Source of the DNA: a virus
DNA: 64,000 nucleotides
Virus record (IMG/VR): IMGVR_UViG_3300032215_000682
Span: 51,637-115,636 of that record
Strand: one strand, 5' to 3'
Below, one piece after another: positions 40,476 through 46,617 of this stretch. The notes under the pieces are model-generated. The model was not told the DNA's origin. It worked only from the letters and a program-made list of their open reading frames with translations, and did not search any database. Made by a program: the position numbers and the translations under genes. The first letter of the stretch is position 1. Each line of letters opens with the position of its first letter.

Positions 40476-41240
40476 CTATTAATTAATTTAAAAACAAAAT
40501 AACATGTTTAATATAAAAGAAAAACTTGCAGTAGTGTCTATTATTAGCAATGTGTCTCCTGAATCTAAAAAAATTCAACAAGAAATCATTGATGAATTTG
40601 AAAGAATTCAAAAAGAAAATGAGAAATTAAAAATTTTAATTGATTTATCTAATATATTTTGGATAACTAATTGATTTTCATTAAATTATTAATAGAAATT
40701 AGTGTTGATTGATGTACATAAATTACATTCCATCAATAAAACTCTTACAAAATTTCTATTTAACATAATATTATTTACAGAACACTCTAATAACAAATTA
40801 ATTTGTTAAAAAATTGTTAAAATATACAAATCATGCTACAAACCATCTTACTAATATCTCTAATTTGTAATGGAATATTTATTTCTTTTAATGAAGAAGG
40901 TATGATATTTTACAAAATTGGAAAATATTTAGAACAACATACAATAAACATATTGAGAGAGTATAATGAGGGAAGGGTAGCTTAAATTCTATAATAATAG
41001 CTATTTAGGAAATATCATATATATTAGTAATTATATTTTCTCATATCTTATTCTTGCAAGATAAAAAGTTAAGCCTGATCAGCTTAATAGAACAGATTTT
41101 TATTGAAATTAGCAGGCAAAACTTATAGCACTAACTATAATACCTAGCTGTAGGGTGTATTCCAATGATACAATCTAATACATAGTTTTTATGTTCATTT
41201 TTTAATTAATTGTCTCATTCATTATAAATGCCTCATTTAT

Positions 41241-41314: not shown

Positions 41315-41345
41315 CATTATTTATTAACACACAAAAAACACATTT

Positions 41346-42752: not shown

Positions 42753-42779
42753 TTAAAATTAACACACAAAACAAAAAAA

Positions 42780-43541
42780 ATGAAAAAATTACTAGAAGCT
42801 TTAAAAAATCAAAAATTTATTTCTCCTGATTCTAAACAAAAATTTTATTTTATGTCAGGAATTAATAGAGAAATAAATCCAGGACATGTAACTAAAATGG
42901 TAAGTTCTATACAAAAAATGGGTGTGATAAGACCTGTAGTATGTGTAATGACATCTTGTATAGAAAATATAAAGAAACTTTATATAATAGATGGACAACA
43001 TCTTTTTACAGGATGTATAAGAATAGGTTGTGAAATACCTATTATAACACTTTATAGTGAATCTAAAGAAGAAATAATAGAATGGATGGCAGCACTTAAT
43101 AATTCTTCAAAATCATGGTGTTTATTAGATTATATAAAAGTGTGGAAATGTCTTGATGGTAAAGAAGATTATAATGTTCTATTAAACTCTTTTAACACTT
43201 ATGATTTAGAAATAAATATTATAGCTTGTTGTTATAATAATATTCAAATAGGATGTTCTCAATCTAAAATTATTAAAAAGGGAGAATTTAAAATATTAGA
43301 TAGAAAAAAAGGTGATGAAATATTAAAGGATGGTTCTGATTTGTTTTCTGTTTTAAAAGGAAATAGAGAAAGCAGAGATGTTATTAAATATTTTATGACT
43401 GCTTATGTTAAATGGAGATATTCAACATCTTCATATAATCATAGTAAATTTTTAGAATTTCTTAATAAAAATAAGAATGTTTTTGAAAGTTTAGTCAATT
43501 CTCCTAAAGAAACAAATGATTTTTTAAATAAATTTAAATAA
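42780..43541 (+). CDS. ParB/Srx-like N-terminal domain protein
   Basis: NR.IN..HV..M..SI...G...P and YIIDGQH motifs. Start moved to 42780 because the ORF-track start lies inside tRNA-Arg. Confidence 0.75.
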   Translation: MKKLLEALKNQKFISPDSKQKFYFMSGINREINPGHVTKMVSSIQKMGVIRPVVCVMTSCIENIKKLYIIDGQHLFTGCIRIGCEIPIITLYSESKEEIIEWMAALNNSSKSWCLLDYIKVWKCLDGKEDYNVLLNSFNTYDLEINIIACCYNNIQIGCSQSKIIKKGEFKILDRKKGDEILKDGSDLFSVLKGNRESRDVIKYFMTAYVKWRYSTSSYNHSKFLEFLNKNKNVFESLVNSPKETNDFLNKFK

Positions 43542-44224: not shown

Positions 44225-44621
44225 GGGGGTGAGAAGAATAGATTAGATTGATTAGTTAAATAATTAAGCAAGTGAATGATATTTTACACTTTAAAAATTA
44301 ATATCAAACAATAAATGCAACAGAATTGTCTGCCTTTACCTTTGATGATGCAATGAATTTTGTATCTCAGGATGAGCTTGTAGAAGCTGCTATATAAGAA
44401 ATTATATTGCTGTTCTTGGAAACAGAAGTCTACAAATATAGCTTTTCTTATTTACTTAGAAATAAGATGGTGGAGCACAATCAATATTTGGTTGTCCTAT
44501 TTTTATTAATTTAGTAAAATTAATTATTTGGAATACTAGAATAGTATTATCCTAAGCTTATAATAAATTATTTAATAAACCTTTTTAAGACCTGGCTAGC
44601 ATTATGCCAGCACCTCCACCA
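44225..44621 (+). ncRNA. ssrA: tmRNA (transfer-messenger RNA)
   Basis: GGGGGTG/CACCTCC-A-CCA acceptor with a G3.U pair. Helix TTAAATAATT/AATTATTTAA. Resume context ATAAAT-GCA and tag ORF 44317-44397. 397 nt. Confidence 0.88.
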
Positions 44622-44689
44622 CACATTATATTTTAAGTAGAAGTTAATGCTCAAGCATTAAGGTTTTGGTGCAAATCCAGATAGTGTGT
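44622..44689 (+). ncRNA. tRNA-like RNA with non-canonical anticodon arm
   Basis: CACATTA/TAGTGTG acceptor, mini D arm TTTT-AAGT-AGAA, TTAATG-CTCAAG-CATTAA, T arm TTTGG-TGCAAAT-CCAGA. Confidence 0.55.
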
Positions 44690-44719
44690 CTATTAACAAA
44701 ATAAAATTTAAACAAAAAC

Positions 44720-45862
44720 ATGAATTTAAAATCAAAACTAAACAACTTTTTATTCAATAAGAATAAATATAAAGAACATGATGAAGCAATTATAATATCT
44801 TGCTTTTTTAATCCTCAAAAATCTATTTATAGAATAAATGCTTTTAATCAATTTTATGAATCAATTAAACATCTCAACCATCATATAGTAGAATGTACTA
44901 TTGGAAATGATATTAGGCAATTAGATACTTCTAATAAAAATATTTCACATGTAAAAACAGATGTTTTATTGTGGCATAAAGAATCTCTTTTAAATAAAAT
45001 TATTAAAACACTTCCTGCTAAATATAAATATATTCTTTGGATAGATGCTGATGTAATATTTGAGAATAAAAATTGGATGATAAATGCTGTTGAACAACTT
45101 CAAAAGAATAATATTATTCAATTATTTTCAGATTGTGTACATTTAAATCAATATGAAACTCCTAATAACTTAAATTCTGATTTTAAAGATCAATGGAGTA
45201 AAAGATCATTTCCAATTAATAATAAAAGAATATGGAATTCATTTGCTTATAATTGGGTGTTTAATAGAATATTGGCAAAATCTGAAAACTATGATATACA
45301 TGGACATGTAGGATTTGCTTGGGGAGCTAAAAGAGAAGTATTAGAAAAATGTCCTTTATATGATAGAGCACTAATTGGTGGGGCAGATCATATAATGGCT
45401 CATGCTTGTGTAAATCAAATTCCTTGTTCTTGTATAACAAAATCTTTTACAGATGATATAGATGAAGTGAGCAAATGGTCTAAACAATTCTATTATGCTT
45501 GTGAAGGTAAATTAGGAGTTGTAAGTGGTACATTATATCATATTTGGCATGGAGATATTCAAAAAAGAGAATATTTAAAAAGAATTAAAGAGTTTACACC
45601 TCAAACTAAGCATATTACTAAAAAAGATAATAATGGTTTATACACTACAACTAATAAACAGGCTTTACATTATGTAAATGATTATTTTGATAGAAGAGAA
45701 ACAGGACATGATAGTGATTTTCTTACATCAATGGTTTTAGGATATATAACAGATATGCCTTTTATAGGTAATAATACATTAGGAAGTATGATAGGAGCTG
45801 AATTGAGAGATGCTTCCAACAATAATTCTACAAATATAGTAGATTTTCAAAATTTTTCTTGA
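44720..45862 (+). CDS. GT-A-fold glycosyltransferase-like protein
   Basis: WHKE.LLN, WIDADVIF (DxD), GFAWG, GGADH and HIWHG motifs. Confidence 0.6.
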   Translation: MNLKSKLNNFLFNKNKYKEHDEAIIISCFFNPQKSIYRINAFNQFYESIKHLNHHIVECTIGNDIRQLDTSNKNISHVKTDVLLWHKESLLNKIIKTLPAKYKYILWIDADVIFENKNWMINAVEQLQKNNIIQLFSDCVHLNQYETPNNLNSDFKDQWSKRSFPINNKRIWNSFAYNWVFNRILAKSENYDIHGHVGFAWGAKREVLEKCPLYDRALIGGADHIMAHACVNQIPCSCITKSFTDDIDEVSKWSKQFYYACEGKLGVVSGTLYHIWHGDIQKREYLKRIKEFTPQTKHITKKDNNGLYTTTNKQALHYVNDYFDRRETGHDSDFLTSMVLGYITDMPFIGNNTLGSMIGAELRDASNNNSTNIVDFQNFS

Positions 45863-46477: not shown

Positions 46478-46521
46478 AGAGAGAGCATAAGGATCTATTA
46501 TTCTTGTGTTCTTTCTTTTTT
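46478..46521 (+). terminator. Intrinsic terminator
   Basis: AGAGAGAGCATAAGGAT/ATTCTTGTGTTCTTTCT stem with G.U pairs followed by a U-tract. Confidence 0.6.
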
Positions 46522-46598: not shown

Positions 46599-46617
46599 CT
46601 TAAAAAATTAAAATAAA

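Follow-up and report, generated by a model that had tools for sequence, protein, structure and literature searches.

A tRNA-derived element without a standard anticodon loop directly follows the tmRNA of a crAss-like phage

The stretch of DNA analysed here (the window, 64,000 nt) spans positions 51637-115636 of an IMG/VR phage record. The record is 115,636 bp long, has direct terminal repeats and contains 27% G+C. The portal, the large terminase and the DNA polymerase of the phage match PHROG families, and tblastn with the portal retrieved crAss-like phages, with Leptolyngbya phage Lbo-JY46 (41%) at the head and Cellulophaga and gut crAss phages after it. The phage is crAss-like. The dinucleotide CG is nearly missing from its genome (29 CG versus 1314 GC in the window), and 84% of the genome lies in ORFs that are 100 aa or longer, of which 21 of 95 stop at TGA. 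Reading TGA or TAG as sense codons did not improve ORF coverage, either in this genome or in that of its closest relative (G001; DNA polymerase 66% identical). The genetic code of the phage is standard; a suppressor tRNA is therefore not needed, and an opal-suppressor reading of the element described below was dropped. Within the window, the RNA genes follow each other in the order tRNA-Leu, tRNA-Asn, tRNA-Arg, tmRNA, a 68-nt element (the subject of this work) and tRNA-His. The element thus lies inside the phage tRNA cluster, whose four canonical tRNAs reach Rfam tRNA scores of 55-63 bits. The coordinates of all features are collected in Table 1.

Table 1. Coordinates of the features discussed in the text (window positions unless a genome or contig is named)
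Feature	Position	Strand	Basis or remark
tmRNA of the phage	44225..44621	+	RF00023 end-to-end alignment; conserved blocks shared with the G001 and G006 tmRNAs
68-nt element, tRNA-derived cloverleaf without standard anticodon loop	44622..44689	+	ARAGORN
Acceptor 5' strand, CACATTA	44622..44628	+	pairs with TAGTGTG, 44682-44688; ARAGORN drawing
D arm TTTT-AAGTA-GAAG, without G18G19	44631..44643	+	ARAGORN drawing
Anticodon arm, 8+2+8 palindrome TTAATGCT-CA-AGCATTAA	44644..44661	+	letters, ARAGORN drawing, folding
T arm TTTGG-TGCAAAT-CCAGA	44665..44681	+	ARAGORN drawing
A-rich 30-nt trailer CTATTAACAAAA..., up to the next ORF	44690..44719	+	letters
380-aa ORF, weakly GT2 glycosyltransferase-like, lineage-specific accessory	44720..45862	+	PF00535, 22.2 bits, just below cut-off
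Trailers with ATTAAC(A)-type motif and A-rich run	40477-40503, 41316-41345, 42753-42790, 44690-44719, 46600-46617		
Long terminator-like hairpin 5' of tRNA-His	46478-46516	+	17 pairs, then a T run
tmRNA of G001	L036:1468-1928		homologue of the window's tmRNA
Mini tRNA-like sequence of G001, 64 nt	L036:1387-1450		Rfam tRNA 16.1 bits, under cut-off
tRNAs with odd anticodon loops	L004:4294-4363; G001:15848-15925 (= L001:1173-1250); G001:124104-124197		ARAGORN, default settings
tmRNA + 3 nt + tRNA pairs	L082:8748-9169, L104:450-864, L118:1729-2178, L141:6293-6742, L121:4456-4882		stand-alone pairs in unrelated viral contigs

The gene upstream of the element was missed by ARAGORN and by Rfam at the gathering threshold, and a whole-genome search with RF00023 at E ≤ 0.001 returned no match. 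When searched in E-value mode, however, RF00023 aligned to it over model positions 1-374 with 13.7 bits (E = 0.0034), which is below the cut-off of 47 bits. Both ends of this alignment are confident (5' GGGGGUGA, 3' ...CACCUCCACCA). The acceptor pairs 5' GGGGGUG with 3' CACCUCC and carries the alanine-type G3:U70; the pseudoknot PK1, the resume codon GCA and a tag frame of 26 codons are readable. At 9 nt (TAGCATTAT), the T loop, closed by the stem CTGGC/GCCAG, is atypical, and the 3' ACCA is encoded, with the CCA at 44619-44621. The tmRNAs of G001 and of a second lineage, G006 (contigs L040, L048 and L055), share with that of the window the 5' end, PK1, the TATCCTAA block and the 3' acceptor, and the G006 tmRNA scores 76 bits against RF00023, over the cut-off. 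The upstream partner of the element is a divergent but genuine tmRNA and, since its blocks align across three lineages, the placement of its 3' CCA is sound.

The T loop is also non-canonical in the G001 tmRNA (6 nt, GTCGCT), and the G006 lineage has kept a canonical TTCGAAT loop and a tag ending in …AMAA. The tags of G001 and of the window are long, with LVE near the end in both (…DELVEAAI and …LVEEDYV), and their tails are alike.

An earlier sequence-only reading of this DNA had placed a cloverleaf directly after the tmRNA CCA, and this is what we find: the CCA ends at 44621, and the element begins on the very next base of the same strand. ARAGORN, run at -ps95, draws it with stems of 7, 4, 5 and 5 bp in the standard order and with complete pairing. 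The length of 68 nt, the 7-bp acceptor (one pair being G.U) and the TGCAAAT T loop given in that reading all recur in the drawing. The small D loop was likewise recovered, although its size was given as 4 nt and ARAGORN makes it 5 nt (AAGTA); either register is possible. The variable region is AGGT, the discriminator is T44689, and no CCA is encoded 3' of the element.

All three loops of the element are aberrant, and its four stems are fully paired. The D loop (AAGUA) has no GG, which is present in the D loops of all four canonical tRNAs of the phage. Position 55 is U (pseudouridine) in tRNAs; in the T loop of the element, UGCAAAU, it is G, and the T loops of the other phage tRNAs read TTCAAAT or TTCAACT. 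The anticodon arm measures 18 nt instead of the standard 17 and forms the near-perfect palindrome that had been noticed from the letters. It can be paired in two ways, as the 5-bp stem TAATG/CATTA with a 6-nt loop, CUCAAG, which is the arrangement drawn by ARAGORN, or as a 7-bp stem with a UCAA tetraloop. In the minimum free energy (MFE) fold, both of the element alone and in the context of the tmRNA, the arm is a closed 7-bp hairpin capped by the UCAA tetraloop. The earlier statement that no standard 7-nt loop or anticodon can be assigned is borne out: ARAGORN labels the element 'SeC|Leu (ca)', and no anticodon can be named. The CUCAAG loop is a single homopolymer step away from CUUCAAG (UCA), CUCCAAG (CCA) and CUCAAAG (CAA), and judged from these letters it is possible that the loop arose by a 1-nt deletion or by an assembly slip.

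The cloverleaf has -7.2 to -11.1 kcal/mol versus -14.4 kcal/mol for the MFE fold, a difference of 3-7, and the MFE fold of the element retains the acceptor and anticodon helices only; the folding z-score is -1.78. A44621, the last base of the tmRNA, could pair with T44689 as an eighth acceptor pair. In the MFE fold of the element in its context, the acceptor helix is formed and the A44621-U44689 pair is included.

We next consider whether the element is more than a chance fold. The ARAGORN match, at 96258-96326 of the genome (44622-44690 of the window), appears once the threshold is lowered to 95%, just under the default. From -ps95 down to -ps90, the element remained the sole addition to the four canonical tRNAs over both strands of the 115.6-kb genome. 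A simulated second-order Markov genome of 4.6 Mb yielded 8 matches at 95% and 50 at 90%, the former corresponding to a background of about 9e-7 per position and strand, and ARAGORN gave 0 extra matches at 95% in real related-phage DNA (513 kb). By these simulated and real background rates, a match that begins on precisely the base following the CCA represents an event of about 1e-6 per position. The Rfam model RF00005 (gathering score 29 bits) found no match at the element in searches of 1 kb and of 121 nt, even at E ≤ 10. The surroundings resemble those of the other tRNA genes: the tRNAs for Leu, Asn, Arg and His are each followed by an ATTAAC(A)/A-rich trailer with an ORF start 18-30 nt on, and the same is true of the element, where the ORF starts after 30 nt. 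These shared trailers, five of which are listed in Table 1, suggest at the level of the letters that tRNA-ORF modules are laid out in one long transcript. We conclude that the element is a genuine tRNA-derived element and not a chance fold. It is non-canonical, and its use as a codon reader is probably excluded.

Other functions for this stretch were considered and rejected. The palindrome is not a repeated site, as a repeated operator would be; open frames over the element span just 24-37 aa and are of low complexity, which speaks against a small protein; and no terminator-like site was called inside the element. Between the tmRNA and the element there is no terminator-like site either, and promoter-like matches at the element did not exceed the frequency in shuffled sequence.

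The sequence-only reading had also proposed to look for the same 3' appendage on other phage tmRNAs. The element is missing downstream of the tmRNA in both G001 and the G006 lineage, the sole two related tmRNA lineages, and 0 of 14 ARAGORN-called phage tmRNAs, a sample picked by the tmRNA 3' end only, have a tRNA in the 60 nt that follow. The tmRNA of G001 has CACCTCCAC at its end and then TTATT, so that CCA is not encoded, and a reverse-strand gene comes next. The sequence after the CCA in the G006 lineage shows no tRNA-like signal. Given this absence in both related lineages, the element is dispensable for tmRNA maturation in the family.

Searches further afield gave no second copy. The 18-mer spanning the junction of tmRNA and element had no match in IMG/VR, and the anticodon-arm pattern with free loop length had one, which was random and not in a tRNA. 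By blastn, the locus matched only the tmRNA blocks of G001 among the whole records of five relatives and nothing in a collection of phage isolates. Two tmRNA block patterns retrieved G001 and G006 only from IMG/VR, and a scan of metagenome contigs with a single tmRNA pattern gave the G006 lineage and random matches only. No tmRNA was found in the cultured crAss-like Leptolyngbya phage Lbo-JY46, in Cellulophaga phage phi17:2 or in csAssE-Sib, and no relative carrying the element was found in IMG/VR through the downstream 380-aa gene.

A second small tRNA-like sequence lies close to the tmRNA of G001. There, the RNA genes run Leu-...-mini-tmRNA-Arg-odd tRNA-like, and the mini sequence ends 17 nt upstream of the tmRNA. 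It resembles the element in its collapsed anticodon arm, shrunk to an AU stretch of about 12 nt, in its discriminator T, in its D arm (GTTT-AAGGAAA-GAAT) and in adjoining the homologous tmRNA. It differs in standing upstream of the tmRNA at 17 nt rather than downstream at 0 nt, in the GG of its D loop, in its canonical T arm with the loop TTCAATT, and in the U run that follows it. The identity between the element and the mini sequence is 62%, no more than the background among tRNAs, compared with 64-66% for orthologous canonical tRNAs of the two phages; the identity of the element with unrelated tRNAs is no lower. The mini sequence may be the counterpart of the element across the tmRNA, or it may be a terminator-like hairpin. 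The odd tRNA-like sequence at G001:15848 was rejected as an orthologue of the element, as its positional counterpart is the tRNA-His of the window.

Tight pairs of a tmRNA and a tRNA do occur in other phages, as a minority. We scanned for ...CCTCCACCA followed by a D-arm motif 7-10 nt on, with 120 loci listed. Among these matches, at least five viral contigs from at least two lineages have a tmRNA CCA, exactly 3 nt and then a canonical tRNA called by ARAGORN, which is tRNA-Ala(TGC) in 4/5 of the contigs and tRNA-Met(CAT) in 1/5. The tmRNA tags end in AMAA before tRNA-Ala(TGC) (n = 4), and a tag of 29 residues precedes tRNA-Met(CAT) (n = 1). As tmRNA is itself charged with alanine, the pairing with tRNA-Ala is suggestive. 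The matches listed also include at least 17 pairs of two tRNAs with spacers of 1-3 nt and none with a spacer of 0 nt; a second case of a 0-nt spacer combined with a crippled tRNA was not among them.

RNase P needs chiefly the acceptor/T-stem helix of its substrates. This top half, formed by stacking of the 7-bp acceptor and the 5-bp T stem, appears to be what was kept of a tRNA-derived gene whose decoding features were lost. The reading we favour, which we hold to be evenly balanced between right and wrong, is that the element is a tRNA-derived, non-decoding relic that still serves as an RNase P cut site at its junction with the tmRNA. The tmRNA, the element and the glycosyltransferase-like gene would most likely be co-transcribed within a series of tRNA, tmRNA and protein genes on one strand, and host RNase P would cleave at the 44621/44622 junction or beside it. 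Such a cut is probable because the acceptor/T helix of 7+5 bp is uninterrupted, shares its strand with the tmRNA and is not preceded by a terminator-like site. This single cut would free the tmRNA with its CCA already 3'-terminal, without a trailer and off the downstream mRNA, and the 68-nt by-product would probably have no role in translation. The sequence-only reading had noted that cleavage directly before the element would leave exactly the tmRNA CCA; as a matter of geometry, with zero spacer, one strand and no intervening terminator-like site, this is correct.

The RNase P reading has its weak points. The element probably lacks the elbow contacts (G19-C56) that are used by the specificity domain of RNase P, and the enzyme prefers other bases at its cut site than the C+1 and A-1 present here. 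Pairing of A44621 with U44689, as in the modelled fold, could displace cleavage by a single base. In addition, the cloverleaf lies above the MFE fold in energy, and the relatives do without the element.

Known systems supply parallels for individual parts of this arrangement. For tmRNA, the 5' end is made by RNase P, and the 3' end by RNase III or E followed by trimming by RNase T/PH (PMC3968760). In polycistronic tRNA transcripts of E. coli, RNase P alone can separate the units, each downstream one being cut at its 5' end (PMC2190699). The E. coli operons valV-valW and leuQPV (PMC2190699, PMC7049720) and phage tRNA clusters resemble the present locus in their same-strand tandem units with tiny spacers, and in tRNA operons the 5' cut of the downstream unit sets the 3' side of the upstream one, as we propose here. 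The present locus departs from these operons in having a 0-nt spacer, a tmRNA as its upstream unit and, as its downstream one, an element that is no usable tRNA. A further parallel is provided by mascRNA and menRNA of MALAT1 and MEN-beta (PMC8457004, PMC11693755), which are also small cloverleaves with a reduced anticodon arm located just 3' of a non-coding RNA; in both settings, an RNase P cut would make the end of the upstream RNA. However, mascRNA and menRNA are eukaryotic and conserved, and their RNase P and RNase Z cuts and their CCA tail were demonstrated experimentally, whereas the element is a single phage occurrence known from its sequence alone, and its upstream RNA is itself tRNA-like. 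A pseudo-tRNA or tRNA-like gene in a phage tRNA cluster and RNase P punctuation are thus both of known kinds, and the element is a new combination of them.

If the element does direct the 3'-end cut of the tmRNA, the phage would retain the pared-down shape of a tRNA for no other purpose than to signal RNA processing. tRNA 'punctuation', known from mitochondria and from mammalian long non-coding RNAs, would then extend to phage operons of RNA and protein genes, and this would account for the 'pseudo-tRNAs' that tRNA finders call in phage tRNA clusters.

The strongest competitor, possible though clearly less probable than the RNase P relic, is that the element is an inert, decaying tRNA pseudogene and that an endonuclease and an exonuclease form the 3' end of the tmRNA in the usual way. 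The three loop defects are readily seen as independent lesions, one in each functional loop, and decay would also agree with the lack of an Rfam tRNA signal, with the relatives that lack the element and with an anticodon loop only one homopolymer step from loops of 7 nt. Odd tRNA-like genes are, moreover, common in this phage group (3/8 default ARAGORN calls). Neutral decay at 27% G+C would, however, not be expected to leave 21 of 21 stem pairs intact beside damaged loops, and at an abutment of 0 nt any residual recognition by RNase P automatically touches the tmRNA end. Were the element merely decaying, the outcome would be one of routine annotation, namely a pseudo-tRNA beside a divergent tmRNA missed by standard tools.

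A more far-reaching version of the favoured reading holds that the element, perhaps together with the mini sequence of G001, is a maintained non-decoding module coupled to the tmRNA, a phage counterpart of mascRNA, by which RNase P would excise the tmRNA from an mRNA-containing transcript and whose freed RNA might act as a decoy or binder. We regard this as doubtful.

It is improbable that the element is a working decoding tRNA, either with an odd anticodon loop of 6 or 8 nt or as a normal tRNA given a wrong loop length by misassembly. The pattern Y32-U33-NNN-R37 is kept in the loop (CU-CAA-G), and an otherwise excellent tRNA of a distant relative (Rfam 49.9 bits) also has a 6-nt loop. These points are set against a D loop without GG, a G at position 55, the missing Rfam tRNA match and an anticodon arm that zips up into a closed hairpin. 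In bacteria, tRNA-Leu carries A73 together with a long variable arm, and the discriminator of tRNA-Trp is G73. The discriminator U of the element and its lack of a long variable arm argue against an identity as Leu or Trp. With the standard code, an opal suppressor would be unnecessary as well.

Quite unlikely, too, is a released tRNA mimic, which the sequence-only reading had suggested in a nuclease-resistant form, with a job of its own, for example as a decoy for a tRNA-targeting host defence nuclease or for another tRNA-binding protein. Phage tRNAs counter anticodon nucleases by changes in the loop (PMC10264068), and these variants share with the element their tRNA-derived nature, their place in a phage cluster and an altered anticodon loop; a closed anticodon arm would presumably be no substrate for loop-cutting enzymes. 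The published variants, however, retain 7-nt loops, normal D and T loops and decoding, all of which the element has lost, and the element is neither conserved nor accompanied by a partner gene. Finally, a chance fold in an AT-rich spacer, or a DNA-level palindrome or operator without an RNA role, would fit a cloverleaf that is not the MFE fold, the z-score and a rough estimate that palindromes with 8-bp arms occur a few times per 64 kb, but it is very improbable in view of the exact abutment by the ARAGORN background, of a palindrome that is not repeated and of the absence of a coding-looking small ORF over the element.

The 380-aa gene downstream of the element is of a widespread, bacterial type, with homologues of 50-59% identity in genomes of Leptospiraceae, Flavobacterium, Bacteroidota and cyanobacteria. 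G001 has no homologue. As the closest phage relative lacks it, the GT2-like gene is, judged from these comparisons, probably a recently acquired accessory gene. Joint acquisition of the element with this gene was considered and rejected, as bacterial loci of the gene have no adjacent same-strand tRNA. An identical 380-aa protein is encoded on a second contig, which may be another assembly of this phage.

Non-7-nt anticodon loops were seen in three of the eight tRNAs called by ARAGORN at default settings in related crAss-like contigs. In the order of Table 1, these are a 6-nt loop (TGTAGG) in a strong tRNA, an irregular or 10-nt loop and an 8-nt loop, and the tRNA with the irregular or 10-nt loop is called 'SeC(tca)' despite the standard code of G001. 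Such loops may be characteristic of the phage group or may reflect assembly indels. Further along the cluster of the window, the hairpin immediately 5' of tRNA-His is the sole terminator-like site on the + strand of the 8-kb RNA gene region.
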